Below, piece by piece: positions 26,890 through 62,200 of a stretch of DNA of 64,000 bases. The stretch covers positions 25,668,001 through 25,732,000 of the forward strand of contig OZ231126.1 of the NCBI GenBank assembly GCA_965153355.1, given 5' to 3'. Position numbers and translations under genes: made by a program. The stretch's first letter is position 1. Every line of letters begins with the position of its first letter. The notes below the pieces were generated by a model. It ran no database searches. It had not been told where the DNA came from and saw only the letters and a list, made by a program, of their open reading frames with translations. This DNA is from Flaccisagitta enflata (Eukaryota).

Positions 26890-28265
26890 GAATAACTGTC
26901 AAAAATGCCATTTTCACAATATTACTTTAAGAAACAATTTCAAATGACAGTGGCTTGAGCATTGATGTGTGTAAATATCGTTTGATAAGTGTAACAGCAG
27001 TTTTTGAACATCAACAACCTGGAAAACTGTGAAAATGGCCATTTTTTCAGCAAAAAATGACAACAGCTTCAGTTGATATTTGGCAGGAATATGTCTCTGC
27101 GTCAAACTAATACTATTTGACCATTTACCACCTTAAACAGCTGTTTTTTAACGTCAACGACATGAAAAACTGTGAAAATGGTCATTTTTACAGCATTTTA
27201 CGGCAAAAAATGACACTGAATGATGACTGCTTCTATTGATTTTTGGCATGAGCATGTCTCAAGGCCAAACCATCACTGTTTCATCGTTTGATAACTATGA
27301 CAGCAGTTTTCTAACATCAACAACCTGAAAAACTGTGAAAATGGCCATTTTTACGGCAATTTACGGCAAAAGATGACACTGAATAACAACAGCTTCACTT
27401 GAATTTTGGCATGAATGTGTCTTGGAGTCAAACTAATACTGTTTGACCATTTGCCACCTTTCACAGCTGTTTTAAAACGACAACAACCTGAAAAACTGTG
27501 AAAATGGCCATTTTTACGGCATTTTACAGCCAAAAGTGACACTGAATAACAACAGCTCCACTTGAATTTTGGCATGAATATGTCTTGGAGTCAAACTAAT
27601 ACTGTTTGACCATTTGCCACCTTTCACAGCTGTTTTAAAACGACAACAACCTGAAAAACTATGAAAATGGCCATTTTTATGGCATTTTACGGCAAAAAAT
27701 GACACTGAATGATGACAGCTTCACTAGATTTTTGGCATGAATATGTCTCAGAGTCAAACCAATACTGTTTGACTGTTTGCCACCTGTTACAGCTGTTTTT
27801 TAACATCAACAACCTGAAAAACTGTGAAAATGACCATTTTTACGGCATTTTACGGCAAAAAATGACACTGAATGACAACAGCTTCACTTGAATTTTGGCA
27901 TGAATATGTCTTAGAGTCAAACTAATACTGTTTGACCATTTGCCACCTTTCACAGCTGTTTTATAACGTCAACAACCTGAAAAACTGTGAAAGTGGCCAT
28001 TTTTACGGCATTTTACAGCAAAAAATGACACTGAATGATGACAGCTTCACTTGATTTTTGGCATGATCATGTCTCAGAGTCAAACCAATACTGTTTGACT
28101 GTCTGCCACCTTTGACAGCTGGTTTTTCATACCAACAACCTGAAAAACTGTGAAAATGGCCATTTTTACGGCATTTTACGGCAAAAAATGACACTTAATG
28201 ATGACAGCTGCACTTGATTTGTGGCATGAGCATGTCTCAAGGCCAAACCATTACTGTTTCACCCT
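26890..28265. repeat. 163-bp tandem repeat (ttttacggcattttacggcaaaaaatgacact...)
   Basis: Repeated ORFs are 163 bp apart (27351, 27514). Diverged relatives occur at ~59260-59965. Confidence 0.85.
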
Positions 28266-29466
28266 TTGACAGTAGTGACAAATTGGGCTCTATGCTTCAA
28301 TTCTGTTTGCTGACCGCTGTAATCTATTTGCTTGTTGTGTTTGGCTTTGACTCTGGTTTACTATGTTACAAGTTACTGTTGGTCATTCTGTTGTTGTTTC
28401 TTTAGCTGTGATTCTTGGTCAGTATCGTTGATTGTCAGTAGATTAGTAGGTCGAGTAGCTACTTTACTCGCATTTATAGCTAGATATTAGAGATGCTCCC
28501 TGTAATCTGCATATTCTCTGCCCTGTTGAACTGAGACAGCATTACTGAGTTACTGGTTACTGCAAAATAAATGATTGTTTAGTAATATGTGATTTCATTT
28601 GTGTTTTTTGATGACGATGCATTACTATATTACTGTGTTACTGTGAAATAAAGGATTATTTTGGTAAATGTATACTGTGTAATATTTACTACGCCTTAAT
28701 TAGGAAGGATACAGAGGAAATTATTTACATAGTTATTAGAATAGCCGTAAGAAGAAAGAAGAAGAAGGGAGTAAGAGAGAGAGAGAAAAGTTTTGATTTG
28801 AAACTCAAAATAACGATTACAAATTAGGCGATGAGGTTGGATTGAGAGAAGAAGAATAGTAGAGTAGAGTAGGTGTAAGGATTACATAAGGATGGCATTG
28901 GGAGGACGTGGGACACATGCGGCAATATGCAGTAAGCAGTAGTGTGTATTTTATGAATGGTTGTGTGGGATTTGGTTTATTTTGTTACGGAGAGTGCGGA
29001 AATGTGATTTTTTTTGGTAGTTTTTAGATTTTTGGGGTTGGTAGTATATTTTTAAGGGTATTTTTAAGAGTTTGAGGTTTGTGTGGGATTTTTTTGGTGG
29101 GAGAATGTTTTTTTTTTGGGTAATTTTGAAGTAGTGTATGGTGCATTTGAATGTTTTTTAGTAAGTTTTTATATGGATTTTGATAATAGTTGAGGTTACT
29201 GAAATTTTAAGAATTTTTGATTAAAAATTGTGAGATGGTTTGAAATGTTAAAGTAAATTGTTGGTGGAGTGTGTGAATTAAGAGTTGGTGTGGGGGTGGG
29301 TGTAATAGTGAAATATGTGGGAGAGAGGAGGGGAGGTTGTGGAGTGGGGGGGTGTGAAGTTGAGGGGGGGGGGGTTGAGAAGGGGAAGAGGAAGAGGAGA
29401 AAAAGGATAAGGAGGAAGAGAAAAAAAGGAAGAGGAGGATGAGGAAGAAGAAGATGAGGGGGGGGG

Positions 29467-29900: not shown

Positions 29901-30936
29901 ATGGCTGGCAAGAAAGGCGAAATTTGCTCAGTGAAAACGCACCAATTTTTTCCTTCCAACTTTTGCTTGGTGTTTGGTCAAAGTTCATCGGGTTTGTAGT
30001 TGGTCACGAAAAAAATGATAGTTTAAAAAATAGATAATGAAGTAAAGTTAATAAGTTATATAATAGTGAAAGTTAAATTTTGATTTGATTTTAAAGTTGG
30101 AGTATTTTTGTGTGGTTTTTTGGGTATTTAATGGGATGTAGATATTATAGTAATTGACAAAAAAATGTTTTTGAGTAAATTTTAAATATTTTGCTTTGCG
30201 TGCTTCTGAAGAAATACTGGTTACTAAATACTGAAGTTTTTATTGTAAGGTGTTGGACATTTTTTTTGTGACCATATAGTTTAAAGGAAAGACAAGTTGG
30301 CTTACTAATTTGCTAATTGAACGTGAATACCATTTTAAACAACGGATAAAGAAATTGATATTTTTCTACAAGGAAAGCTGTAAAAGTATAGAAAAACTGA
30401 AAAATAACGTGGCCAAGGAGAAGGGGTTGGAGACGATTTTCACAAAGAAGTTTCCCGAAAATTTTTTGGATTTTTGTAAACTGGAGCAAGATTCCAGTGT
30501 GATTGTGATCGACGATTTTTTTTGGGACGCTACTACTGATGAAACTGTGCGATCTGCGTTGATATCTCTAGCGAGCATATGGAATCATCATAAAGGCGCA
30601 ACAACGTTTCTCTGCTTACATTCGTACGACATATTTTTGAAAGCATCTAAATTGAATGTAATTCTCATGAACTCTTCTCATCTTATTTTCTTTAAGACTG
30701 CACACGACGCTCGCGCCGCTAAACGACTTATGGGACATTACATGCTGAATTTGAAAGGTGGACAGACCCTCTTTGACGTTTATAAGCGGCAAGTTTTGGA
30801 AAAAAATTTTTCTTACATCGTGGTTGCTCTTTCGCCGTTGAGTACGAAGCCATCGGTTTGGTCCCAAGTGTTGCTTGCAGAGGAGTGTCCGATGCTTTGT
30901 TTTAACGAATCGTCGTCGGATAGCGACGGGGAGTGA
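29901..30936 (+). CDS. A32/FtsK-like DNA packaging ATPase; exons 29901-29991 and 30287-30936 (~246 aa)
   Basis: Splicing the phase-1 intron 29992-30286 (GTTTGT...TTAAAG) restores Walker A LVFGQSSSGKT. Walker B is VIVIDD. WNHH and NSSHLIFFK resemble Polinton ATPase motifs. Confidence 0.9.
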
Positions 30937-44934: not shown

Positions 44935-45348
44935 AGAAGGACGATTTGTTTGGAACATTTGTGAATACGGGCGCGGGGCGGCATAGTCGATACGAGGCAT
45001 CGTCGGCGAGGCATCGTCGACGCGAGGCATCGGCGATCGTCGAGGCATCGTCGGCACGCGGCATCGTCGGTGTGGGCATCGTCGACAGCGGGGCATCGCG
45101 GGCATCGCGGGGCATCGCGACGCGGGCATCGCAGACGCGGGCATCGCAGACGCGTGGCATCGTAGAAATGAGGAGTTATTGTGACGCGGATTGAATTGGC
45201 GCGTTTACCTGATATAAACAATTGATGTTTACTGTGATTTAATGGAAGAATATTCACATTTATTCTTTATGTTTTCGTTTGTATATTGCAATGATTTTAA
45301 TTTTTATTGGATGATCAGATTGAAATGACGTAGACAACGCGATTAAAA

Positions 45349-48300
45349 ATGACATTTACGGAAAGTGAAATAAACGCCATTGTGCGGGATGATCAGGACA
45401 TGGAAACTGTGCTTCCAAGGGATTACTCCCCAATAATCCACGACGCACTTCGCAATAATTACCATAATGCGCGGACTAGATTAATTATGGCTCCTGGTCG
45501 CTATTGCTCGGAGATACAAGTTAGACTGGCAAACATGCGGCCGGTCCAATATGACTCTTATCGCAACTATTGGCCATCATTACTCGGAGAGAATTTAAAC
45601 TTCGTGCAATTTGTGAAATCGGCGCTAATTACGCAATTTGCATCAAGACGGACTTGCGTTCGCGTGAATTTTAGCATATCGTTGCTAATTTTGGACCCCA
45701 ATGACACTAACTCACCGACTCATTTTTTGTGGTCATCTCGTGGAAACTTCGCATGTTTGGACGTCGCATTTTCTATACACAGTTGGTCGACTTTGAATGA
45801 GTTCATCGAAGACGTTGTGGCGCCATATTCCGTTGAAAACGCCTTAATGAGGAAGTTGGAAACGTTAGAGGAGCGTTATTCTGGTGAACTAATCCCAATT
45901 TCTGTGAACTTCTACATCACCCTCAATACTAACACTATATTCGGTGCCAGAAAAACATACAATCAACGATACCTAAGTGACAATGAGTGCGTCGATAAGG
46001 AAACGTGCAACAGAAACACGGATTGTGTGTGGAACGCCCTCTCGTCGATGGTGACCCTGGACAACGAGCGTCGGCCGATAGTGCGGCACTGTTTACGGAA
46101 AAGGGTGAATAAAAGAATAGCAAAGAGATTAAAGGTGCAATTTTTGAGATGGTATAGGACGACTAAGTTTAAAGGTGACTACTTCAGTGATCCAGTGACT
46201 GCTCATGGATTTGACGCATCTTTCTTCTCTATATTAGAGAAATTCCTAAAAATGGGAATTGTGCTTGTTGACAATACTCAAATAACAAAGAAAAAGGTTG
46301 GATTTTTTGGACTTGTGAACACTAACTCTAAGATGAGATGCTTGAAGGTAAAATTCGCATCGAAAGAGAGACGGGCAGAAACTATATACCTCTCTACGGA
46401 TGGACGGAATCATATACAGTGCATCACTAATTTGCCTATGTTTGCCCATAAATTCACATGTAAGGGCTGCGCAAAGTCGTACCGTTATGCCTGTGAGTTA
46501 AAGCGACACAATTGTAAACAGGCAAAGTTTGGAGGTAGCACACAGCAAAAGTGGATTTACTCCCTACACAAAAGCATTGAAAAAACTTTGAGTGTGGAAA
46601 ATAGACTAAAGAGTGACGCAAAATACATGCATGTTCTTATAAATGAAACGGGTGTTGATGGTGGCATCAGTGTGAAGATGCATTTTCATTTATTTGGATC
46701 GGACATTTTAACCAAGGCTGTAGTGACTCCTGATTTACAGTGTGCCACGCAGATAATAGTGAAATATTGCACCAGAGCTGCATTGATTGTACTCAGTGAG
46801 AGAATGGCAAAGAACTTTAGTCTACTAAAAACAGTTGAGAATGAGTGTAACGGCATTACGATTAAAAGTGACCCCATACAGGTGGAAAACCTGTTGAGGG
46901 TGAAACAAGGACTAGTTGAGTTTTTGTCGTCATTCGCATGTTACATACAAACAGGACATGGTGACAGCTTGACGTCAAATGTTGTTATGCATACACTTGT
47001 TTCTACATTGAGCGATGACAACGATTGCAATAATTTTGCCATTCGATTTGCAAGAAATATGCTACAAGGTGTGTACATAAAGGGTAATCCAGTGAGATAT
47101 TTGAATTTGGGTGAATTTGCACCCAACTACATGGGATTAGAAGCGTGTGACAGTCATGTGATTGATTGGTCTTTAGTAATTGCGAAATTTGAGGAATACT
47201 TTGGACTGAACATCACCGGATTAAGTCCGGGGCAAATCGGCCATCAGCTTTTAGCAAACAATTTAACATGTACCGAAAAAAAAATGTTCATGACATCAAC
47301 TGTCGCATTTCAAGAGCGTACATTCCACGAAAATGTGAGATATGGACTCCTTTCATTCCAAGAAAGTGGCATCGTGTCGCAGAATGCTTCTTTCAAATCG
47401 GTGATATCAAGTGACTACAGTAAATTCTACTTTAGCATTCTAACTAGCCCTAACCCAGATGATTTTAAATGGCTCACTGTTGGCTTACCAATTAGATATG
47501 AAGAGCAGAAAAGAGATGGAGTGTTCGTGGCAGAAAGGACGCGACGTAGGAAGACAATGGCCAATCTTTTTTTGCGGCTGGTAGAGGAAATGTTTGACAC
47601 GACGGTTGTTTCACTTATTAACAGCAGAGAGATGAAATTTGACTCAAAACCAGTGGATGGTTACTTTCAGTTAAATGGTGAAACGTGGGTGACTGAGTAC
47701 TGTGGATGTGGCTACCACGGTGTAGGTGAGAGTAGCTGTGACGACGATGAGGCGGTTAAAACACACAATGGAGTTTGTCATTTGCCAAAGAGTTTCATTA
47801 GGACAAACTACCCCGGACACAGTGAATCGTGTGACGTTTGCAAGGCCGATGAATGTAGTGATAGTTACAATTTTGCGAAGCCATCTCTTTGGCATTTACG
47901 AGATGGAGAAGATCTCAATTCTATGCATTTTTTCCGCAAGGGGTGCTCATACCGTGATCTGTTTGAACAAACTAAAGAAAAGAACAACAGTATAAAAAAT
48001 TGTGGATTTAAACTATTAGTAGTCTATGAATGTACTATACTAAAGTACTGGAATTGCACCGTTGGTGATTTTTTTGCACAGTGGCAGTTACCAGTAAAGG
48101 GTACACACAAGAGTGAAGTATTGGGGAAAATGATGGGGCAGATATGCAATACTGCGTTCCCTCTTTCCAGATACCCATACCTAACTGAAAGCAGAATAGT
48201 GGAATCGATTAAAACAAGAATGTTAAATGGGTTTGTGACAATTACGTGCAATTTGGGCCCAAAGAGTGCTCAGGTTTTAGGGGCAATTAAACCCTTTTTT

Positions 48301-49275
48301 TTACGAGACAAACAGGGGAATCCTGTTCAGAGTTTTGAAATTGAAAAGAGGACCGTTTCAACCTGCTTACTCCATGAATTGCTTACAAACCCTTCATTTG
48401 TGGATTTTACTGTTATAAAAATACATGAAGCATTCGAGTTTACTGTCCCACGGACAAACCCATTTGAGAAATTGCGAAGTCCTGTCAAAATTGCATTGAG
48501 CAATGAGGGAAGTTGCACATTCACAAAACTAGTTAAGGCCACAATAAACCGCGCAGTTGGAAGTCTTAATTACAATTGTACTAAACGCGTGAAAAGTATT
48601 TTGATTAAAGAGGATGACATAGCACATTTGAATTCCCAAAACTCAAATTTGTCCCACTGCACACGCGTAACTGCGGACAAGGTGTTGATGCATCTAAAGA
48701 ATAGACGTGCTGTTAGCAACAGTTCCCACTTGCATTTGGGTATCTTAGCAACTGGAGTATCGGCTATGCTGCGTTATCTATGTGGGATGAAACAATTTCT
48801 GACTGGCGCTGTTTTTCAACGATGCAACACTGATGGGGTGGTAGTAAAATTTGAGACAGAACATTTTCACGAGTCTCTGACAGTTTACAGTGATTTGTCG
48901 CTTGTATTTGATGCGTTTTTACCAAGAGATAATTTGAGCACGGAGATGCTAAACGGTTATATTACATGGAAAAAAACCTATTTTAAACATTTGGGATTTT
49001 GCCCTAATCACGAGAAAGTGTACATGGATTTTCTACTTAAAAATGATACATGTTTTAATCCAATGGAATGCTGTAGAAAATTTGTTAACAACGATACTAG
49101 ATTTTGTATGATTGTAGAGTTTACTGGCAACATGGCTCTTTTTAAGTCGGTAAATGCGTTAATTATTGTGAACACGTACAATTTAAAAAAATATGCAAAG
49201 GGCGTTGCGTATCAATCATTTGACTGTGTTAATCTTGCTGGCAAGAGTTGTGATGAGTTGAAATTAATGCTGTAG
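45349..49275 (+). CDS. Protein-primed family B DNA polymerase (pPolB) with Vsr-like nuclease insert, divergent (1308 aa)
   Basis: N-terminal NTDCVWNAL and HIQCITN...CKGC...KRHNC Zn region. Motif A SSDYSKFY (47413). Vsr-like VDGY...EYCGCGYHG...VVYEC. Motif B KATINRAVG (48535). Motif C CNTDG (48832). Confidence 0.85.
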   Translation: MTFTESEINAIVRDDQDMETVLPRDYSPIIHDALRNNYHNARTRLIMAPGRYCSEIQVRLANMRPVQYDSYRNYWPSLLGENLNFVQFVKSALITQFASRRTCVRVNFSISLLILDPNDTNSPTHFLWSSRGNFACLDVAFSIHSWSTLNEFIEDVVAPYSVENALMRKLETLEERYSGELIPISVNFYITLNTNTIFGARKTYNQRYLSDNECVDKETCNRNTDCVWNALSSMVTLDNERRPIVRHCLRKRVNKRIAKRLKVQFLRWYRTTKFKGDYFSDPVTAHGFDASFFSILEKFLKMGIVLVDNTQITKKKVGFFGLVNTNSKMRCLKVKFASKERRAETIYLSTDGRNHIQCITNLPMFAHKFTCKGCAKSYRYACELKRHNCKQAKFGGSTQQKWIYSLHKSIEKTLSVENRLKSDAKYMHVLINETGVDGGISVKMHFHLFGSDILTKAVVTPDLQCATQIIVKYCTRAALIVLSERMAKNFSLLKTVENECNGITIKSDPIQVENLLRVKQGLVEFLSSFACYIQTGHGDSLTSNVVMHTLVSTLSDDNDCNNFAIRFARNMLQGVYIKGNPVRYLNLGEFAPNYMGLEACDSHVIDWSLVIAKFEEYFGLNITGLSPGQIGHQLLANNLTCTEKKMFMTSTVAFQERTFHENVRYGLLSFQESGIVSQNASFKSVISSDYSKFYFSILTSPNPDDFKWLTVGLPIRYEEQKRDGVFVAERTRRRKTMANLFLRLVEEMFDTTVVSLINSREMKFDSKPVDGYFQLNGETWVTEYCGCGYHGVGESSCDDDEAVKTHNGVCHLPKSFIRTNYPGHSESCDVCKADECSDSYNFAKPSLWHLRDGEDLNSMHFFRKGCSYRDLFEQTKEKNNSIKNCGFKLLVVYECTILKYWNCTVGDFFAQWQLPVKGTHKSEVLGKMMGQICNTAFPLSRYPYLTESRIVESIKTRMLNGFVTITCNLGPKSAQVLGAIKPFFLRDKQGNPVQSFEIEKRTVSTCLLHELLTNPSFVDFTVIKIHEAFEFTVPRTNPFEKLRSPVKIALSNEGSCTFTKLVKATINRAVGSLNYNCTKRVKSILIKEDDIAHLNSQNSNLSHCTRVTADKVLMHLKNRRAVSNSSHLHLGILATGVSAMLRYLCGMKQFLTGAVFQRCNTDGVVVKFETEHFHESLTVYSDLSLVFDAFLPRDNLSTEMLNGYITWKKTYFKHLGFCPNHEKVYMDFLLKNDTCFNPMECCRKFVNNDTRFCMIVEFTGNMALFKSVNALIIVNTYNLKKYAKGVAYQSFDCVNLAGKSCDELKLML

Positions 49276-49773: not shown

Positions 49774-50445
49774 TTAGTCGGATGATGGGTTTTCAGGAGA
49801 GGGTGTGTGGAACTGCCCCCTCCCCCTTTTGGGTCCGGCATTTTCCTTCGACGCGTCTGGAGCCTTTCGTTTTTTCCCTTTCGCGGCATCGGCCTTCACG
49901 CATGCGTTGACCCGCATGGTTCGGAAGAACCTAGGCAGCACAGGTTGGATTGAACCAACTTCGGGAAGATCGGGGAATACGTTGAACGATTTGAAAATTG
50001 AGATCCTGTGAGAGAAGCAGTAATGAAAAAAATAAATATAGTAATTCTGTTGATATGGGTTTGTATGTTTGTAATCACGTGGAAAATGTTAGTTGTAAAT
50101 GATTGTTGTGCATAAGGGAAAAATGGAGGACAGGGGGGGGGGAGTGAGGGGGAGAGAGAGAAATGGGGTGAGATGGAAAGGGAGAGGGAGGGGATGGGGG
50201 GAGGGGATGGGGGGGGGGGGTGAGAGAGGAGGGGGGAGGATGAAATGAGGGGGAGAGAATGGAAGAGATGGGGAGAGGAGAGGGAGAGAGGGAGAGAGAG
50301 AGGGATAGAGAGGAAAGAGATAGAGAGGAGGGGAGAGAGGTAAAGGGGGGGGGAAGAGGAGGGTAAGAAGGGGAGGGGGAGATAGAGAGGGTTGGGGGAG
50401 AGGATAAGAGGGTTGGGAGGGAAGAGGGTTGGAGTGAGGTGGGTA

Positions 50446-50498
<53 letters not shown>

Positions 50499-51112
50499 AT
50501 TTGGCAAGGTGCCCCATCGACTACGATTTGCGAAGGACGTTCCGGTCGGACACCATCCACCTCCTCTCTCCACCATTCGTCTTCTTCGCAAAGGCCGTAT
50601 TCCTCGCGGATATCGGCCTTTCTTTCATCGGAGAGGTCAACCCACTTTTCTCCCGGCGACAAAATGGGACATTGCAGCCTGGAACGATGGAGAAATGTGT
50701 GTTATTACTGTTGTGTGTGTAATGTGAATAAAATTGGCAACGGAATGATTTTTGTATAGTTTTAACAATTACATTTAATTAACTAATGTACAATGATGGT
50801 ATTTATTTATATACTAACTTGAGTAACCACAATCGATTTAGAAGGCAGGAAAGTTCTCCAGGATTCTCTGCAAACTCTTTGATGTCAAAGTTTGAAGAGC
50901 ATAGAATTGGGACATCGTGGGCGATGCTGCGGCCAGCGCCATGTTTGACGTTAATATCGCCACTGACGCCTTCAAACATAAGTTTGAGGTCGGACGGCTT
51001 GAGTTGCTTTGGTTCCATTTCGTCGCAGTGCGCAACATCTACGATGGGGTGGAGAGGGGCAGAAAGAAAGAAACAAGGTAGATAGAAGTAGTTAGAAAGA
51101 AGGTAACAATAA

Positions 51113-51162
<50 letters not shown>

Positions 51163-52005
51163 GCAACAACAAGCACAACAGTTAGTTCCAAATCTACGCT
51201 AACAACAGAGTTCAGTTTGTAAGTTCAGAGTTTCGCGACTCGCATTTCATCGGTTTATCTGTCAACAACAACAACTATCATGAACAGTAACAATAACAGT
51301 TACAAATAGGGACTCACCAGTCGTGAAATACACGTTTTGTAGGTAGAAATTTCTCGACGATAAAGACACGAGGGCTTTCTGTATCGCCGGTGTGAGGATG
51401 GATAGTAGAAGAGACTTTCCGTATTGCTTGGCCCGCTCACGAAGAATCTTTGAAAGACAGAGAAAAAGACAGAAAGGATAGAAAAAAGGATAGAAAAAAA
51501 ATTAACTAAAACATTTAAGGAGGAGAAATATGGGTTAAAACGTGGAAAATAGAGGCAAATTGAATAACCAATAGATAATAAATGGGAAATTGTATGAGTA
51601 AAAGGAGAATATACATACCCACATCTCTTGGTGTGACTGTCAAGTTGCTGCATCTTTGCCTTGGCCTGTTTGGCGGGATCTTTGCGGTCTTTGATGCGCT
51701 GCTTGGCCAATTCAATCGCGGCGCGGAGACGAGCTGCCTTTTCTGCGGGTGTTTCCGATCGAACGTCATCGGCGCCAATGGCGCCATTAGAACCTACAGA
51801 TGGCGCTGCATGTGGGGTGCGGTCGCCGCGAACAACGCCCGCGTGTCCGGCGTTTGCAGATTCATGGTTGTTTTCGATGTCATCTTCGTCGGAATCCTCG
51901 CTTGCGTCAGTATCGCCACCTTCGACGTCATCATTGGCGGCATTGGGTGCCTCTTTGTGTTGGTCGACGTCAGACCCATCGGATGCGTCGTCGTCGTCGT
52001 CGTCG

Positions 52006-52043
<38 letters not shown>

Positions 52044-55000
52044 TGGTTCGGGTTCCGGCTCCGGCATGGATTCTTCCATGATGATTTTTCGTTTGATACT
52101 GAAGGTCAGGATGTAGTTTAGGACGGCGAGGATCGCCCTTGGATCTCCACCATTAGTCGACAATAAATGCGCCAGCTGCAAAAAAAAAAGGTGATTGTAA
52201 ATGTAATTGTGGTCAGCGGTACCCGTCACCCATTTATAAATTTTCCGAATGAATACAAACAAACACCATCGTTCAACATTACATGCACACATTTTACCCA
52301 TTGGGCCATGTCGTCGTAGACGTTATTTTCTCTCTCGTATGACCCCAGCTCCTTGATCATTTCGTCGGTCGCTCCTTCGTCTTTAGCCGCTTGGATGATG
52401 GCATCCCAATCTGCCTTATCTTCCTGGATCATCCGCTTGTATTCTTCAATTTGCGGTTTGTAACTGAAAAAAAGAGAATGTTAGTAAACAAAACATTAAT
52501 AATATTAACCAAATGGATTGAAAGAAATCTACGTTAAAACTATGACTAATAAAAATAATTGAACCATGTTAATTTAAATGACCATCTTACTTACTATTCA
52601 ACCATGCGAATTATAAAGGATTTTTCTCTGGCCTCCTTTTGCTTTTGCTCCATGTAAATGTCGAAAATTTCTCGTTGAACCGATTCACTGCAACCCTTTA
52701 AGTAGACCGACAAGCCAAGTCGCAATTCCATGTCCATGCTTTGTCTAAGAAAATGGAAGTAACATTTGAATTACAACTAAGTGAGGGGGGGGGGTGTGAG
52801 TGAAGCCCCACACGTTCCACTTAAATTTATCACCTCCAAGATTAATGCCTGTTGTAAAACTAACCTGAACTCCTCGAATGACTGTGGATTTGATCTCTGC
52901 GGATTTGATCTCTTCATGAGTTGGATGAGCACTTGTCGCTGGTCCCAATCGTTTTGCATTGATTCCGAGCATTCGCATTCCCCAATGTCTAAGTGAGCGA
53001 AAAAAAATGTATGGGGTTGAGGGTACACAGAAATTGTACACATATAGAATTTTTAATCGCGTGTACGCGACCATCGCGTGTACGCGACCATAAGTCATTT
53101 TTAGGTATAATGAACCATTTTAGGCGATTCTAAGTAATTCTAAGTCATTCTAAGCAATTTTAAGTAATTCTAAATCATTTTAAGTCATTCTAAGTTATTC
53201 TAAATCATTCTAATTATTTTAAATCATTCCAAGTAATTGTAAGTTATTCTAAGTCATTCTAGGTCATTCTAAGTTGTTCTAAGTAATCCTAAATTATTTT
53301 AAATTATTCTAAGTTGCTTTAAATCTTCCTATGTTATTCTATTCATTCTTACATACACAACCAACCTAGGAATTTTAGACGATCAGGGGCTTTCAACGAT
53401 GGGTCAAGAAATTCCATTGATGGGCGTCCCTTTTTGCCCTCTCCCTTTGATGGCATGGGATTTGCATCTACCATGGATTGGCGTTTCGTCTCATCGTCCA
53501 AAAACACGTCGAAGCAGCTCACAGCTGGCTTATTTTCGTCCGGCATCTGATGAAACTGAGAGGCGAAGAGCAGTAATTATGTATTAAAGTTGCACATGTT
53601 AGTGAATGCATGCATATAGAATGACAATGAAGCTGCATAGTATATAAATACCAACCTGTAGCAAATATTCAAGTAGGGGTGGTGCCACTCTTCCCTTAGC
53701 CTCTTTATCGTTGCCGCGCTTGTTGTTGATGTCGATGCAATAATCAATCCTCTTTTGTTGCACATGTTCTTCGGTGGGACAGCATATTGACTGTGTGAAT
53801 AATTTTGTAAAATGCTATCACAAAGTATTTATAACATTGGAGTATTCGATACTGTGGCATCACCATAGCATCACAATAGCATCACACTGGCATCACATTG
53901 GCATTGCAGTAACAACATAGTAGCAGCGCAGTGGCAACGCAATAGCATCACAATAGCATCACAGTGACATTATAATAGCATCACATTAACATCACATTAG
54001 CACCACAGTAGCAACACAGTAGTAGTATTGCAGTGGCATCACAGTAGCATTACATTAGCACCGCCGTAGCATTAACTCACCTCGTAGTCACATGGTTTTG
54101 ACAGTGCAGCTGCAATTTTCGCGTAACCCCACTTGTTTGCCAGTGAGGTAAGAGCACCACTCCTCCTCAACACCTCGTCAAAAACCCTTTCGTGTGCTGT
54201 GTTTGACCAACCTTTGGGTTTTTTGTCTCCCGCGATTTTCTGTGTATTTGAGAGGAAATGATTAAATCGGGAATGGGTATGTATAAAAAGGCCATAGAAA
54301 TCCCAATATCTCTTAAAATCATTTAAATTGAAAAACTCTCTCCTCTAACCTTCAAAAACAGCTCGATGTCTGATCGCCATCTGTGTCCGTAGGAACTGAG
54401 AGAAAAAAATAGTTGAAAATGTAAGATGGTTAATGTTACCCATGGCATGTGGATAAAGACAAGGTTGAGAGTGGGGTAGCGACCCCAACACAAATAGAAA
54501 TGTGGAAAGAGTGAGAGAGAGAGGAGAGGGGGGAAAGGAGTGAGGGAAGGAAAGAGGGGAGAGGGATAGAAGGGGGGGGAGAGAGAAAGAGGCAAAGGGA
54601 CAAAGAGACAAAGAGACAGAGAGAGAGGCAGAGAGATAGAGAGAGAGAGAGAGGGAGAGAGAGAGAGATACAGTGCGTGAAATGTTCCATATCCTCGTCA
54701 TTCATCCCGGCTTCGTCTCCGTCCTCCCTGAGAGAAATAGTAAATGCGCAATGTAAACGAGTAAAAATGGATGGCCGCGTATACCATTAACAGCAGTTAT
54801 ACAGAAAGTATATACTTACTTGAACCTGTAGTGGTGACTGTACCAAGCATCACACTTCTTATCTCTAGCGTCCAGGTACTTCATCTTGAACTCGATACTG
54901 GTAAGACCGCTGTTCAAGCGCTTGATGTCTCTGGAAGTGAAAGAGGATGTAGATTTGATAACGGATAAATCTAAAGTAATTATCAACTGTAGTAGTTGAA

Positions 55001-55678
55001 ATCGAATTCTACACACATACATATTCATAGTTACCTAATAAACAAGAGGATGTGTAGCCAAGTGGGTTGATTAACCCCCATCTTCTTTTGGGATTCCCGC
55101 AGTTCGGCAATTTCCTCCGCTTTATCTTCCATGCCCTTTATTAACGGAATTCCGTCTATGACCGCGACGGTAGACATGTTGGGGGCGGTTACGACCACGC
55201 CCTCCATGTTGCTTTCTTTGGAGGCGGCCTCGAAGTCGGCGGACAAATTGCGTCGCGGATGTGGGATTTCGGTAGATACCTCGTCTTTATTTGTTGGCAC
55301 CATCGATTCATTTGGTATTGGCGACGCACGTGGAGAACGCGGTGATGGTGGCGTCGCCGCGCCACCCGGTGTTAACAGCCCACTTTGCTCGTCTGGTGTT
55401 GGCGATCTCCTCGAGTCATCGGATGCGCACGGGGATGCAGGCGACGAAGGACGAGGAGGAGGCGTTGGCGGAGGAGGAAGTGGTGCCGGGGGAGGAGGAA
55501 GAGGTTCACGATTGGCCTCATCGTCGGAGGAGTCCGACGGAACAAATTCCTTCGATTTATACTGTTCTTCCTTTTTGTCTTTTTTCTTGTGACGTTTGTC
55601 TTTATTTTCTTTTTTTTTACTCTTCTTTTTTTCACCCTCACTTGATTTGGATTTATGTTTTTTCTTTTCTTCAGCCAT
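49774..55678 (-). CDS. NS1/E1-like Rep: SF3 helicase with candidate N-terminal HUH domain; 15 exons (55678-55035, 54930-54820, 54727-54440, 54395-54350, 54239-54081, 53790-53656, 53546-53366, 52988-52865, 52744-52595, 52463-52298, 52175-51619, 51447-51318, 51038-50819, 50678-50079, 50005-49774); 1-nt frameshift in Walker A; ~1247 aa if repaired
   Basis: All junctions are GT-AG and phase-consistent. Motifs: KRCGFFVSGPSNT/GKS (A), SSRNFYLQN, VAHCDE (B), LKLMFEG..INVKHG (B'), ILCSSN (C), LLNRL (Arg finger). Confidence 0.8.
53115..53340. repeat. 10-bp (taagtcattc)n array inside a Rep intron
   Basis: Visible directly in the sequence. Confidence 0.85.
53855..54070. repeat. 11-bp (agcatcacagt)n array inside a Rep intron
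   Basis: Visible directly in the sequence. Confidence 0.8.
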
Positions 55679-56231: not shown

Positions 56232-59215
56232 TTAAATTTCATCGTAGTGTGTGAGCAGCAATGAGACGAGTAATGTGTTGTAGTTGGGGTGTGAGTCATA
56301 CAAATGGCGATTGAAAACAGAGACATTCAACTCCTTGGCAGAATGATATACTTTAATGTGCTGGTAAAACTCTAGGGCGCTTCTTTGGACAATATTACAT
56401 TTCTTACATTGAATGCCATTTTCAAAAGATTTCTTAACTTCAACTGCCATGTGGGTAAAAATATCTAAAAATTTCAATTTTATACCACACAGGTAACACA
56501 CTACATCGTGGTTTTCTTCCCTGAAATGGGATATAATGTCCTCATACATGCCCTTGCCATATACAAAACGTGTGTCACACTGTGAACATTGCTTATCCAC
56601 TCCAATAGAGACAACGTTCTGCCTGACAAAGTCACAACTTCCGGTGAGAATATGGTCTCTTGGAGTGAGCGATTTAGATTTTCCTGGGAATGGTGTGAAA
56701 CAATAACAGCAAATTTTCTTACTCAATCTACTTGGCAGTCCGTGCACTGTATCCTTACTTTTCTTGATGGAAGTGGGCGCCTTTTTGACGATGGGCAGGT
56801 CATTGGATTTGAGCCCTATGTCCAAATTTGGCATTTTTGGCGACTTGTACTCGAATTCACCGTTGGATTTCCGCTTTGATGGTGATTTTCCCGCCCCACT
56901 TTTCTGCGTCATCGACGATGTGGATTGAGGCGCAGATTTTTGGGCGACTGTCGCGATTTTGTCGCCCACACTCACACTTGATGAAAAGGGACGCGTTGTG
57001 GTATTCGATGACGGCTTTTGTGGCGCAGATTGGCGGGATGATGATGCAGATTTGCCGTTAATCTTCCCGGTCAATGATGGTTGGGCATTTTCCTTTCCAT
57101 TTGATGACTGATTAGAGGATTTACTTGGAGAAGATGCATTTGGGTCCATAAGTGGCGCCGCTTTATTTGTTTCCTTGCCAAGCACTTTGCCATATTTATC
57201 AGTCAATAGCACCTGCTTTTTGGCGTTGGGATCGGGAATTAGTGGATCCTTGGGAGTGAAAACCGATTTATTCGCGGGATTTCCGGCTTGACTGCGTTTC
57301 AAATCGCTCATTCTCACGCCATTTTTGGGTCCCAGGCGCAACGCAGGGGCGCCATTTCTCGATAAATTGACGTCACCTTCATCCGCGAAGGCTTTGGAAT
57401 ACAGAGATTTAGTAGGAGAAAATGCGTCTTCATTTGATGCGGAATCAACTGGCGCCTCATCCGGTTTCATCATATCTTGCAAGACAGCTGCGGCTTCGTT
57501 ACCTTCTTTAATCCAACCTGCTTCATTTGCCACCTTCCCTTTTTCATTATGCGCCCCTTCCTCTTCATCATCACTCTCTCCCCCGCCTCCAGCCTCCTCC
57601 TTGTCATCTTCCTCCTCCCTATCCTCCTCCTTGTCATCGTCCTCCTCTCCAGCCTCCCCCTTGTCATCGCCCTCCTCCCCATCCTCCTCCTTGTCATCGT
57701 CCTCCTCCCCAGCCTCCCCCTTGTCACCGTCCTCGTCCCTATCCTCCTCCTTGTCATCGTCCTCTTCCCCATCCTCACCCTTCCCTTTATTTTCATCGCC
57801 ATTCCCTTCCTCATCCTCACTCTCTCTCTCTACATCTCCATTTTCGTCATTAACACCTTCCATTTCGTCTGCCACGTCATTATTCCCCGTTTTACTCGCT
57901 GCGTCATCATGTACTTCGTCTCTCTCGGCGCCATTCGTATCGTCGCTTTCCTTGCGATTTATCAAGTCCATTAAGGCATTCTCAGATAGTTGACTTCCGC
58001 CACTCTCTTCAGTCGACGATTGATTTTTTGGTTTGGCCGCTTGTTTTTCGCATGTGGGCTTCTTATGCTTTTGGGTCATGTCAGAGATGGCATCCTCCGG
58101 TATCTCCTCCTCATCATCGCTGAAGGGGTCGGTAATTAATCCATCATCGGCATCATCATCAGCAGGAAACACTGCACGGTCAAACGGCGCCCCTTCATGC
58201 GACGCAGATGCCATTGGGAAGGCGACTCGCTTACTCGTTGACTTTTGCAATCCCACTTTCTTCGTACAATCAATTACCACTCCACCACTTTGCGACAATG
58301 AGTTGGAGATGTTATCGGTGCATTCAACCGTGACCATAGTCGGAGATGATGTTTTTTCCTCGACGGTGGCGTTGGTGGCGTCCACATTGGCGTCGACATT
58401 GACGTCATCGTCGACGTCGTCACGCCTTTCCTCTCTGTCGCTCAAGTTTGCATTGTCCATGTTAGGGGATCCACTAGTGTTTTCGACGACGGCATCAGCT
58501 TTATTGGGCGACTTGGGATTGTCCACAACATTGGTGGATGCGTTAATTGCGCCATCTGCATCACTAGAGACCAATGCGTTGTCGAAGGCAGCGCCGACGG
58601 TGGCGTAGGATTTGACGGCTTCACCGGGAGTAGGTTTGTTGAAGGGTAAGTAGCGGTCGACAAGGGCTTCCAACTTCGGGATGTCGCATTCCTTAAGACT
58701 TCCTTCAACATCTTCGACATCCTTTTCCTCTCGACGGGCCGCTTCTTCCGCCTCCAAAGCGCGGATTTTTTCTTCTAATCCGTCGAACATTTTTTCGTCG
58801 ATTTTTCGAACCGATTGTGGAATACTCGGCTCTTCATCATCGCAGTTGGGATCGAGGAGCGCAGATATAATTTTGGTTATCTCTGTTGCCATTTTACGCA
58901 TATTGTTTTCGTTGAGTTCAGCCTTTCCTTGGTCGATGTCGTACATCAACTTCGCCTCCTTTATTAGAAAAAAAAAAGGACAATAATACATGAACCCTGA
59001 GATGGCGACAAATTTCATTGGTATATACTATGCCACACCATAGCAAATAAACAACCCCAACTTACCCGGCACGCCTGGCTAAATGACAGCCCCTCCGATT
59101 TTGCCGTGAGAATCAACTTTTCCATCATATTCTTGTAAGGCGCCCTCAACGATTCCCTTTTTTCTCCCTGGGCAACCTGAATTGCGCGCCACTCCTTTTG
59201 CTTGCTAACACACAT
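56232..59215 (-). CDS. Large acidic/disordered protein with C-terminal C2H2-type zinc fingers; exons 59215-59066 and 58958-56232 (5' end uncertain)
   Basis: Phase-0 intron CGG|gtaagt...taaag|GAG. Fingers: CCYC...H...C, CSQC...HFREENH, CYLC...H, CKKC...HIKVYH. Confidence 0.75.
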
Positions 59216-62200
59216 TTGTACTAATGTTCAAGTGATACCATCATCATTGGATGTCAGTTTATGGCGTAAAATGCCGTAAAATGCTGTTTTTCTACCGTTT
59301 TTCTGGCACTAACCTCTCTTAAAGTGCGATATTCACTTGACAACTAACAGAAAATGGGTATTGAGGCCTGCGACACACAAATTGGTAAGTTTCAAAACAA
59401 GGCACAGAAATTCAGTGACATATCAACGCCGTAATAGATTGAAAATTGCCGTAAAATTGCAACATTGGCATTTTTTTTATGAATTTGCCCAAAAAACTGT
59501 TAGATAACGACCATATCATGATGAAATGGCACTAAAATACATCTATGCATATAAGTTTTTGGGCAAATTTACCCTTTCAATTGTCAAAAACACTATTTTA
59601 CGGCAATCTACGACCTTTTACCGTATATAAACATGCCTGAATATCTTTGATTTGTATTAAGCTTCTTATATACGTGTGTCTTAGGCCCAATACACATTTT
59701 CTGTCAGTTTGCAAATAAATGTGGTGCCTAAATTGAAGATAAAACCAAATGATTTGGCAAAAACACACTTTTAACGGCATTTTACGACATAGAATGAAGT
59801 TAAATGATGACGTCATTGCTTGAATATTCCCACAAATGTGTCTTAGTGTCACACCGATATTGTTTGACCAGTTGCTGAAAAGAGCCGTCATTTTTGACTG
59901 AGTTTAAACCGTCGAAACTGGCAAAAATGCTATTTTAAAGGCTTTTTACGGCATTTTACGGCATTTTCTCAAAAAAAATCCCAACAGAATTATCTGTTTC
60001 AAGCATGGTGACCTAGCCAGAGGTGTACTTAGTCAGTAAGGACATGTCACAATGCTGTGGAATTTTTTCCTACTTGCCTCAGTTAGAAAGGGGCGTGCAT
60101 TTTTGTAGTTGCGTTGTACCCATGTGCATCTAGTAAGACATTATCAAGCAATTTTTTTCTCAAGTGGATGTCAGCAAATATGGTCAATTCCACTTAATTT
60201 AACGTTAATTGGTCGTTTTATCTTTGTTTTCACTCAAATCGTCAATATCCTCTCTTAGAAAAGTCAAATTTGGATTAAAATTATGACTGTTGCTTCCCAA
60301 CAACACCTACTACCATCACCTAAAATGTGATGAAATTTGAAAGTCACTAAGTTGCATATGCTTATGTAAATTAGTCGCTCAGACTAATTTGCATATGAAA
60401 AGACAACCTTTAAATTTCAATCTGCAATGAGCTGCAGGGAGAAAATCGATAAGGTAAACAGCATTCAATCACACCTTTGATTTTGTTTCTTAGAAAAAAG
60501 TTACAGAAAGTTACCGGAATATTGAGGTTTTGGTTGACAAAAAAATAATGTAGTCGAATCAATCCCACTCCCGGTGGCTATCAAGGATAAATAGAAACCA
60601 TTGTCAATTGAAGACTTGAGATAATGGAGATCTCATGATACATAAACATACGGGCAGCAACGGGAAAATTATTTCTGTGCGTAACAGCCTCCGTCCTAAG
60701 CCCTCAGTGATGTCTCTCTCGCTCTCTCTCAAATGATAAAAGCGTGAAGAGATACGACACAAAAACAAATAACCGTCAATCCTAGGGGCAAAATTTCAAT
60801 CATGCACATCAAACAATTGATACAGTAGTAAACATTTAGTCTTGAGATAAGGGGATCATTATTTGAGCATAAAGAATTAAATCAGTCTATCAGAGTATCA
60901 AATATAAAAAGCAGCAGCTCTGTGTACAGACATTTTGAACATATAAGTTGGACAACATTACTTTACCAGTAATGGCGGCTATCGCCAGGGTCCGACAAAA
61001 TTTTTGGCTGCCTACAAGCAAAATTTTTCAATTGTTTCCTGCCTACTATACAAGCGCGTAGTTTAATAGAGTTCTCTAGATCAGATTTCAATCATAGAGA
61101 TTTAAATTTGCTTGCAACATTTTTTGCATTATATACTTTGACTTTGAGATAATTTCAAAAAGACCATTGCCATATCTTTTCTAAAAAGCGCCCAGGGCGC
61201 TTTTGAAATTACTATCTATCTTTGCTCTTTAACCCTCCAATTAGCGCCCCTTTGTATTGTAGAAGAACTGTCATTCAGTCCATCTTTTTCATGAAAAGCA
61301 ATCAAAATGCCAAATTTGACTTGAAGAAAGATATTCATTGCATATATCTGCTTAAAAGTCAGTGAAAATGGCTCAATGTGTTGTGTTTTTACATCATTTT
61401 ACTTAAGATTTCTATGCAAATCTTTTCTGAAGAGTGTGACACTAAGACAAAAGAGGGGGGGGGGCGCTTATTGGAGGGGGGGCACTTTATGGAAAAAATA
61501 CGGTAATAGCCAAGAAAATGTTTTTTTTCTCTGTTTTATAGGCAGTTTCTCTTATAAACCGGGCCGGCCAAAATCAAGCGCCTGATTGATTTAACATTAA
61601 AAAAAATAACATAGTTTAATGATAGTTGCATCTATCAGCTTGAAATTTTGCTTGCAGGCTCAGAATTTGATACTCTTTCAAGTAGGGATGTGGAAGCGAT
61701 TGACCGCTTTCAATTTGGAGGATGGGATAGCTACTAGTATTTGAACTAAATTGGTGTTAGATGCACGCTGTAAGCCATTGCTACTGTCGTTATTGATTTA
61801 TCATTGCTATGTCATCTAACTGTCATTGCGTCTTGCCTATGAATGATTCACCAGCTCAAAGTGTTGTAAGTGGTCATGTACCTGTGCCTCACGGAGTAGG
61901 AAGTGATGTGGTTGAGAGGGGAGTAGGGCAGAGGTTCTGAAGAGGACGAAGTCCAGTAAAACATAGGGGTAACCTGTCCGTCTGTCCATCCGTTCGTCCG
62001 TCTGTCCGTAATGCTTGCCAAACATCTGTCCAGGATGCCTGTTATTCAAATTTTCATTGAATATCAATAGAGAACTGACAAAGGGCAGAATATGGACAAT
62101 GGTACTTCTTTATATTTTTGTATAATGAAGTTGTTGAGGCAGGAGCAGCCGTGATCTGGGTCTCTTAGGCCAGACCTGAACCTCAGAGACCAATTTTTGG

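Follow-up and report, generated by a model that had tools for sequence, protein, structure and literature searches.

We analyzed a 64,000-nt stretch of the Flaccisagitta enflata genome (assembly GCA_965153355.1, contig OZ231126.1, positions 25,668,001 to 25,732,000 of the forward strand; referred to here as the window), in which a gene for a superfamily 3 (SF3) helicase occupies the minus strand at 49774-55678, next to a plus-strand open reading frame (ORF) for a polymerase-like protein of 1313 amino acids (aa). Coordinates throughout are positions in this window. Papilloma-, polyoma-, parvo-, CRESS-, and adomaviruses use SF3 helicases of the E1, LT, and Rep types as their replicases, and it is an open issue in the evolution of DNA viruses how such helicases became joined to virion and polymerase modules of the adenovirus/Polinton type. 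A chromosomal locus with an E1-like helicase beside a Polinton-type polymerase would offer a tangible case in which to examine the direction and the mechanism of module exchange. The helicase and the polymerase genes are both conserved across several marine lineages.

The region at 49774-55678 is a genuine spliceosomal gene of 14, possibly 15, exons. It begins with an ATG at 55678-55676 and ends with a TAA at 49776-49774 on the minus strand, as proposed in a previous reading of this DNA that was made from the letters alone (the sequence-only reading). In an independent reconstruction, 14 exons were joined in phase to give 989 codons, which are free of stops when an X is placed at a single frame break. 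All 13 introns are bounded by GT...AG, have pyrimidine-rich acceptors, and are 100-568 nt long, and exonic sequence accounts for 2969 of the 5905 bases of the gene. The sequence-only reading had counted 15 exons and a protein of ~1247 aa; the chain of 14 exons proved to be open, whereas the additional exon is mostly a CT microsatellite with three donors and an indel, and the length was not reproduced (989 aa, and at most about 1085 aa with the optional exon included). We also compared the window with two sequencing runs with haplotypes ~1% different from it, X1 (a DNA run labelled as the organism of the window) and X2 (a marine metagenome). Indels made up at least nine of the differences listed for 49.6-55.8 kb. 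Eight of the nine listed lie outside the 14 exons, with exons making up half of the span, and the ninth is the frame break in the P-loop.

The last five exons encode the SF3 helicase core. Exon 12 (50819..51038; 220 nt) carries motif B (VAHCDE), motif B' with its Lys-His hairpin (KLMFEGVSGDINVKHG), motif C (ILCSSN), and the Arg finger (LLNRLW), while motif A is found on the preceding exon 11 (51318..51447; 130 nt in the window), which reads FFVSGPSN / GKSLLL...SSRNFYLQNVYFTT; the order of the motifs is correct. The acidic pair at the end of the Walker B strand lies about 40 residues past the P-loop Lys (DVAHCDE, compared with VALLDD in papillomavirus E1), KLMFEGVSGDINVKHG aligned to the basic hairpin LDGNP.S.D.KHK of E1, and ILCSSN and LLNRLW correspond to LLVTSN and YLYNRM of E1. 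Upstream of the Walker A exon, exon 10 (51619..52175; 557 nt) encodes a helix (LAHLLSTNGGDPRAILAVLNY), followed by an acidic/poly-Asp insert of ~150 aa and a basic stretch ending in ...KRC. Exon 13 (50574..50678; 105 nt in the preferred model, with an uncertain donor) encodes the C-terminal part of the helicase domain and aligns to the C-terminal end of E1. Exon 14 (49774..50005; 232 nt including the stop; acceptor uncertain, with an alternative at 49958) encodes a basic tail, KGKKRK...PKRGRG. Three donor/acceptor pairs of the last intron lead to the frame of this tail; the KKRK...KRGR tail of the sequence-only reading is present, but it is reached only via one of three choices.

For profile comparisons by local hhalign, the query was the spliced core, with X at the frame break, aligned with the exonic parts of three database relatives (P0013-15). 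The reference sets from IMG/VR comprised 21 dependoparvovirus-like Reps (29-58% identical to the first; a widened search yielded only more of the same kind), 10 papillomavirus E1 proteins, 10 polyomavirus LT proteins, and 23 circovirus-type Reps; the D5-like set comprised six P4-alpha-type primase-helicases, among the relatives listed, that are 90-100% identical to P4 alpha. Adomavirus, densovirus, bidnavirus, virophage, and eukaryotic D5-like sequences lay outside these sets. The best match was to papillomavirus E1 (score 44.2, P 1.6e-5), over 135 columns that span the whole core with 27% identity; we take the E1 helicase domain to be Pfam PPV_E1_C (PF00519). CRESS Rep followed, with a score of 35.9 (P 8.3e-5) over 107 columns covering most of the core at 16% identity. 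The other alignments were confined to the P-loop of P4 alpha (33.5, P 6.3e-4, 17 columns) or to the region around the P-loop of dependoparvovirus Rep (30.0, P 2.4e-3, 39 columns) and of polyomavirus LT (27.3, P 5.3e-3, 47 columns). The window sequence alone gave a score of 40.1 with E1 (P 6.5e-5, 137 columns). The similarity to the E1 and CRESS Rep families is above chance: 100 column shuffles of the query reached maxima of 23.3 and 22.6, respectively.

In the E1 alignment, which extends to the E1 C-terminus, every motif is in register (GPSNxGKS/GPPNTGKS, SSRNFYLQ/SKSHFWLQ, VAHCDE/VALLDD, INVKHG/IDCKHK, ILCSSN/LLVTSN, and LLNRL/YLYNRM), and the KRC of exon 10 is aligned to KKNC of E1 just ahead of the P-loop strand. 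The end of exon 9 (52298..52463; 166 nt) together with the start of exon 10 is weakly colinear with the E1 helix that precedes the P-loop (score 22, P 0.12), a match that is not significant alone. Greedy hhalign against dependoparvovirus Rep brought motifs A, B', C, and Arg into register. Hidden Markov models (HMMs) made from the four sets other than E1, including dependoparvovirus Rep, found no match in the core. In the ESM Atlas, the clusters closest to the core exon were PF00910 RNA_helicase clusters of Cressdnaviricota (0.93, 193 shared features); a Parvo_NS1 cluster ranked third (0.87), D5/VapE-type clusters were lower (0.81), and the 10 best named clusters all fall within one family or clan. 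AF2 modeled the 77-aa core exon with a predicted local distance difference test (pLDDT) score of 38.9.

At the level of sequence, the core is distantly but colinearly similar to the papillomavirus E1 helicase domain and next to the helicase half of circovirus-type Rep. As far as tested, these comparisons favor the E1/Rep style over the D5 style for this SF3 helicase. The sequence-only reading had likened the motifs to both NS1 and E1 helicases and had regarded a best match to D5-type ATPases as counting against it. The likeness to E1 holds over 135 columns, that to NS1 does not extend beyond the P-loop region of dependoparvovirus Rep (score 30.0), and P4 alpha aligned over 17 P-loop columns compared with the 135 of E1.

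When the 77-aa core exon 51038-50819 (entered as 51048-50818) was compared by phmmer with 1.84 billion representative proteins, seven matches were obtained at E ≤ 0.001. Three of them are true relatives, P0013, P0014, and P0015, with 91%, 67%, and 72% identity to the core exon, respectively; the other four are unrelated repeat proteins. By tblastn, exon 12 shows 89% identity to P0013 over 70 aa, compared with 74% to P0015 and 56% to P0014, the last match including intron read-through; for the Walker A exon 11, identity to P0015 is 75% over 36 aa. P0013-15, which are short gene calls from metagenomes, extend from an exon into an intron, and their similarity to the window ends exactly at the reconstructed exon borders. 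A search with P0015 in IMG/VR gave nine pattern matches, none of which was confirmed, and no loci were retrieved from the JGI metagenomes or IMG/VR with a degenerate pattern of the conserved B' peptide.

The single frame break lies at 51420..51423 on the minus strand, within the P-loop codons, where the window is one base short relative to its relatives. When P0015 was aligned to the window by tblastn, the match switched from frame -3 to frame -2 between GPSNT and GKS. In the database relatives P0015 and P0143, which are cluster mates, FFISGPSNTGKS is read in one single frame (...RFFISGPSNTGKSLFL... in the longer reading), with GPSNTGKS as the P-loop. In run X2, the extra base is present at a depth of 18.6 of 18.6 and the frame reads through; in run X1, it is present in 0 of 448 and the break is retained. 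A read-through allele therefore exists in the marine metagenome, and a Walker A motif (G....GK[ST] after a hydrophobic strand) is found in the lineage (P0015, P0143, and X2) but not in the window copy. Exon 10 has tandem donors, GTATGT and, 4 nt further downstream, GTATAT. If the ordinary donor is used, the window copy runs out of frame and meets a stop within exon 12; use of the alternative donor preserves the frame at the cost of the first strand and of the P-loop Gly-Pro, both of which are replaced. Judged from its sequence, the window copy is probably inactive by either donor. The sequence-only reading had placed motifs A, B, B', C, and the Arg finger in order. This is borne out for B, B', C, and Arg on 51038-50819 and for a motif A on the preceding exon, but not for motif A as it was read: "AKQYGKS" requires the donor 4 nt further on (GTATAT and not GTATGT), uses a frame that is not used by the relatives, and is a frameshift artefact. 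An in-phase exon path found by eye can thus mask a genuine frameshift.

Upstream of the core, ~750 residues comprise a Lys-rich and then Pro/Ser-rich exon 1, short exons without a recognised fold, and a helical stretch followed by the acidic insert ahead of the P-loop strand. The initial ~550 residues of the protein are either low-complexity sequence or without a recognised fold. Exon 1 (55035..55678; 644 nt; donor TAG|GTAACT) contains the ATG, and its low-complexity N-terminus agrees with the basic/Pro-rich first exon of the sequence-only reading. Exon 2 (54820..54930; 111 nt) is in phase with exon 1 and has the acceptor ttccag| and the donor CAA|GTAAGT. It is also in phase with exon 3 (54350..54395; 46 nt) when the optional exon (54440..54727; versions of 126, 267, or 288 nt) is omitted. 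The latter, a potential 15th exon with its start at 54727, has three donors that each keep the phase, is largely CT microsatellite, and in run X2 is affected, in the two longer versions, by a 1-nt indel at 54572. Because of the microsatellite and the X2 indel, we regard this exon as probably intronic and the count of 15 as unverified. A further version, 54727-54672 with a GTATCT donor, was rejected, as a stop was encountered in the following exon. Exons 4 (54081..54239; 159 nt), 5 (53656..53790; 135 nt), 6 (53366..53555; 190 nt), 7 (52865..52988; 124 nt), and 8 (52595..52744; 150 nt) follow; exons 5 and 6 share the donor GTTGGT, and for exon 7 a single frame reaches exon 8 free of stops. In exon 4, we noticed by eye a Myb/SANT-like W...W...IAAAL pattern, which is unverified; the ORF containing it has no Pfam match.

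In full-length hhalign against the 10 E1 proteins, no origin-binding domain was found, the best P upstream of E1 position 331 being 0.27. Likewise, hhalign gave no match in the ~750 upstream residues to the LT origin-binding domain or the CRESS Rep HUH nuclease, nor an N-terminal match to the parvovirus HUH nuclease in full-length comparison with the 21 dependoparvovirus Reps (the best of the other matches had P 0.19 and 0.4), and no H-hydrophobic-H motif in a convincing context was seen by eye. Because neither a HUH nuclease nor an origin-binding domain was detected in this part, "helicase" is supported, while "Rep" or "replication initiator", as the gene had been called in the sequence-only reading, is not.

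Intron 6 contains a short-period repeat (53130-53350) with TTAGAATGA-like units. Its word depth is 10^4-10^5 in both DNA runs compared with ~20-500 elsewhere, and it is the main part of the locus visible in a metatranscriptome run. This very high-copy repeat belongs to the organism of the window or to others.

The helicase gene and the polymerase-like ORF (45334-49275, plus strand; 1313 aa, or 1308 aa when counted from 45349; intronless) are convergent, as the sequence-only reading had stated, since the helicase stop faces the end of the ORF on the opposite strand at a distance of 498 bp. The ORF contains a C2H2 finger at residues ~374-392, and in the ESM Atlas its neighbours are Maverick-size DNA_pol_B_2 (PF03175) clusters of animals (17 matches ≥0.9, top 0.92). 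Its family comprises 12 database proteins of 1292-1310 aa that are 47-99% identical and all come from ENA metagenomes; a profile search with the family recovered only the same 12 proteins, and a search with its alignment gave 106 pattern matches in JGI metagenomes and 23 in IMG/VR, none of them confirmed. The invariant columns of the family include D..YFS, K...N...G, NTDG, and KK.YF, in the order of motifs A, B, C, and KxY of family B DNA polymerases (PolB). Based on these sequence features, the ORF probably encodes a very divergent protein-primed PolB. The motif-C-like column reads NTDG and not DTD in 11 of 11 aligned family members. Catalytic activity is questionable because NTDG replaces DTD. 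Of the 33 haplotype differences listed in the ORF, 20 are synonymous and 13 non-synonymous, which supports that it is under constraint. A weak match to PIN_TASOR (E 1.3e-4) is below the cut-off.

Further upstream on the plus strand, an ORF matches the rve integrase family (PF00665) with E 7.1e-5; its 23.5 bits fall short of the 32.6-bit cut-off. A packaging-ATPase-like gene lies on the same strand at 29901-29991 + 30287-30936; its Walker A motif, GQSSSGKT, forms only after removal of a GT-AG intron (29992-30286) and is followed by the Walker-B-like VIVIDDF. This gene has no Pfam match, neither it nor the integrase-like ORF has a PDB sequence match, and the ORFs at 34-44.5 kb are without Pfam matches. 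Directly upstream of the helicase gene, and in the same orientation, an uninterrupted ORF of 931 aa (56232..59027, minus strand) has long acidic/Ser-rich low-complexity regions and three C2H2-like fingers at residues 773-895 and matches no Pfam family. Its position recalls the "Ziftr" early gene beside RepE1 in the clam adomavirus, as that genome is described in PMC11071296. In both DNA runs, the polymerase, helicase, and zinc-finger ORFs are covered to the same depth.

Several repeats were observed in this region. A 163-bp unit is present in 7.4 tandem copies at 27056-28268, upstream of the ATPase-like gene, and related units occur singly past the zinc-finger ORF at 59205-59306 and 59769-59953, one in inverted and one in direct orientation; the contigs of both DNA runs break at 59204. 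These units could mark the ends of an element of ~31 kb or could represent a dispersed repeat. Amid the plus-strand gene block, an inverted pair of 422 nt (37866-38287/40261-40682; 92% complementary, 1973 nt apart) looks like a foldback or an insertion resembling a miniature inverted-repeat transposable element. At 45124, where a GC-rich tandem repeat closely precedes the polymerase ORF, the contigs of both DNA runs end with an identical 21 loose letters unlike the window, which indicates a structural difference between haplotypes at this position. GC skew of the plus strand is strongly positive across the gene block (28000-52000; up to 0.58 per 2 kb), largely due to (GA)n/(CT)n-rich spacers and introns.

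On balance, we consider it rather probable that the locus carries a genuine E1-like SF3 helicase gene, in the form of a broken copy, which is most likely the helicase of the adjoining Maverick/Polinton-like element or of a module fused with it. Exons 9/10 to 13, in the C-terminal third of the protein, form the SF3 (AAA+) helicase domain. By analogy with E1, LT, and Rep, the intact protein may assemble into a ring hexamer, with ATP held at the subunit interfaces by the P-loop, Walker B, the sensor-1 Asn, and an Arg finger acting in trans. The Lys-His hairpin of B' would, by the same analogy, draw single-stranded DNA through the centre of the ring, and the protein may serve as a nuclear replicative helicase. 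The helicase would belong to a Maverick/Polinton-like (adintovirus-like) integrated element or to a module fused with this element, its gene being convergent with the PolB-like gene in a region that also contains the weak integrase match and the spliced packaging-ATPase-like gene. The window copy itself would give rise to a truncated protein or, via the tandem donor, to one with an altered first strand and P-loop.

Several observations weigh against this reading. The interest of the helicase gene is limited by the remoteness of its similarity and by the broken copy. Our E1 HMM scored 4.7 bits on the core (iE 5e-4 for one sequence), which indicates remote likeness, and Pfam, PHROG, and PDB sequence searches with single exons and P0013-15 gave nothing relevant. 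E1 is also the hub of the five reference sets (87 to parvovirus Rep and 80 to CRESS), and for that reason "closest to E1" may partly reflect profile quality; in these comparisons, the D5-like class is represented by P4-alpha types only and the parvovirus class by dependoparvovirus-like Reps only. The break is common to two haplotypes (the window and X1), which indicates that the helicase gene is dispensable there. As for RNA, a polyA run (X17) had 0 reads on the gene at ~6% sampling, which is too thin for a test, and only one metatranscriptome contig falls on the gene (54735-54916); it follows the genome without interruption through the donor of exon 2 and is unspliced or DNA. On the side of the polymerase, its identity rests on the language-model lead and the motifs; the ORF has no Pfam PolB match and no PDB profile match, and its C-terminal half was modeled by AF2 with a pLDDT of 48.4, with nothing found by Foldseek at E ≤ 0.001. 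With this poor model, Foldseek returned only the phi29, RB69, and KOD polymerases, at E 0.5-0.8. Finally, it would be unusual for a single element to combine 13 introns in the helicase gene with 0 in a polymerase gene of 3.9 kb, and no long-range inverted pair brackets the region, in which neither terminal inverted repeats nor a target-site duplication was found.

That the exon chain and the motifs arose by chance, with no gene at the locus, can be regarded as refuted. The lack of RNA support and of a Pfam match on any exon would fit this explanation, but 989 codons are open across 13 canonical introns, the exons are conserved in three database relatives, and the profile match far exceeds the shuffles. 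We conclude that the locus is a gene because of these relatives, the indel pattern, and a profile match that is colinear across three exon junctions. Its division into 14 short exons lets it evade annotation of the Pfam type. A very improbable explanation, already weakened by the profile comparisons, is that a Polinton captured a Rep of the parvovirus NS1 type, with initiator nuclease and helicase. The third-ranking Parvo_NS1 cluster of the ESM Atlas (0.87) and the register of motifs A, B', C, and Arg in the greedy alignment to dependoparvovirus Rep are in its favor. In the default alignment, however, the match is restricted to the P-loop (39 columns, 30.0, P 0.0024), with a score lower than those of E1 and CRESS Rep, the core is not recognised by the Rep HMM, and the upstream 750 residues do not align to the Rep nuclease domain, the parvovirus sample being dependoparvovirus-like Reps only.

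The two remaining rivals accept the gene and differ in its owner. It is unlikely, in our view, that the helicase is a host gene, i.e., a viral SF3 helicase that was endogenised long ago, gained introns and low-complexity regions, and adjoins a Polinton-like insertion by chance. The 13 introns compared with none in the polymerase ORF are in line with this idea, as are the varying intron positions (P0014, P0015, and P0143 enter an intron past HDVPV, at a point that lies inside the window exon), the resemblance to a eukaryotic nuclear protein in the acidic insert and the Lys/Pro-rich N-terminus, and the tolerance of the broken allele by two haplotypes. Introns are, however, no mark of host origin here because the packaging-ATPase-like gene of the region is also spliced by a GT-AG intron; moreover, the helicase gene is flanked by the polymerase and by a long ORF that shares its orientation, with no difference in depth, and we know of no cellular SF3 helicase family. 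Less likely again is that the gene is part of the early region of a separate integrated genome, similar to those of adomaviruses or other small DNA viruses, that lies beside or nested in the Polinton-like element without being a working part of it. The ORF list for 56-64 kb contains no second set of virion genes, and the load of 13 introns far exceeds that of any small DNA virus known to us. On the other side stands the 931-aa ORF with its three C2H2-like fingers, directly upstream in the same orientation; in the account of the clam adomavirus in PMC11071296, RepE1 is paired with "Ziftr", adintovirus-like virion genes, and a packaging ATPase.

We return to the preferred reading of an E1-like helicase of the adjoining element or of a module fused with it. 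One extension of it, which is conceivable although we doubt it, is a single element with two replication modules, one consisting of protein-primed PolB and integrase and the other of an "early region" zinc-finger gene and the E1-like SF3 replicase. Such an element would be an intermediate between Polinton-like and adomavirus/papillomavirus-type genomes that has long been resident in the germline. If this is true, the locus would represent a living intermediate between Polinton-like viruses and small DNA viruses of the adomavirus/papillomavirus type, with a germline residence long enough for the replicase to gain 13 introns and with intact and broken alleles segregating.

Compared with known systems, the helicase shares with E1 the order of the motifs at near-identical spacing, the P-loop GP.NTGKS, the S..(H/N)F(W/Y)LQ stretch between A and B, the ...(D/N).KH hairpin of B', (T/S)SN with an Arg after motif C, and a weak colinear match of the helix ahead of the P-loop. 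It differs from E1 by the low similarity (27% identity over 135 columns; 4.7 bits by HMMER), the lack of a detected origin-binding domain, the insert of ~150 acidic residues before the P-loop strand, and the 13 introns. The helicase half of circovirus-type (CRESS-DNA) Rep (PF00910) is the second-best profile and the best Atlas neighbour (0.93), but identity is 16%, no HUH nuclease lies upstream, and the window protein is about three times longer. With parvovirus NS1/Rep (PF01057), the helicase has the SF3 core in common, with motifs registered only by greedy alignment, whereas the default alignment is limited to the P-loop region and the nuclease domain was not found. Similarly to D5-like primase-helicases, it is an SF3 P-loop ATPase in a Polinton-like setting; unlike them, it aligns to P4 alpha over 17 P-loop columns, has no PHROG match, and shows no primase domain.

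The surroundings of the gene resemble Mavericks/Polintons (adintovirus-like elements) in the PolB-like gene of Maverick size with DNA_pol_B_2 Atlas neighbours, the rve-type match, and the packaging-ATPase-like gene. A narrow literature search found no Polinton that pairs a protein-primed PolB with an E1-like helicase. In the parts of Starrett et al. 2021 (PMC8502044) that deal with SF3 helicase (S3H) genes, those of Polinton-like viruses are annotated as D5-like or virophage-like, and NS1-like genes are described as occurring essentially in animals only. According to the descriptions in Buck et al. 2024 (PMC11071296), adomaviruses join virion genes of the adenovirus and adintovirus types with RepE1, RepLT, or CressRep, and the clam adomavirus has RepE1, the zinc-finger gene "Ziftr", adintovirus-like virion genes, and a packaging ATPase. 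Compared by these descriptions only, the locus is similar to adomaviruses in that an E1-type helicase lies beside genes of the adenovirus/adintovirus type, and it differs from both adomaviruses and papillomaviruses in being chromosomal and in adjoining a PolB-like gene and a weak integrase match, which both lack. Overall, the locus resembles the combination described for the clam adomavirus (PMC11071296), with PolB-like and integrase-like genes in addition and in a chromosomal, intron-rich form.

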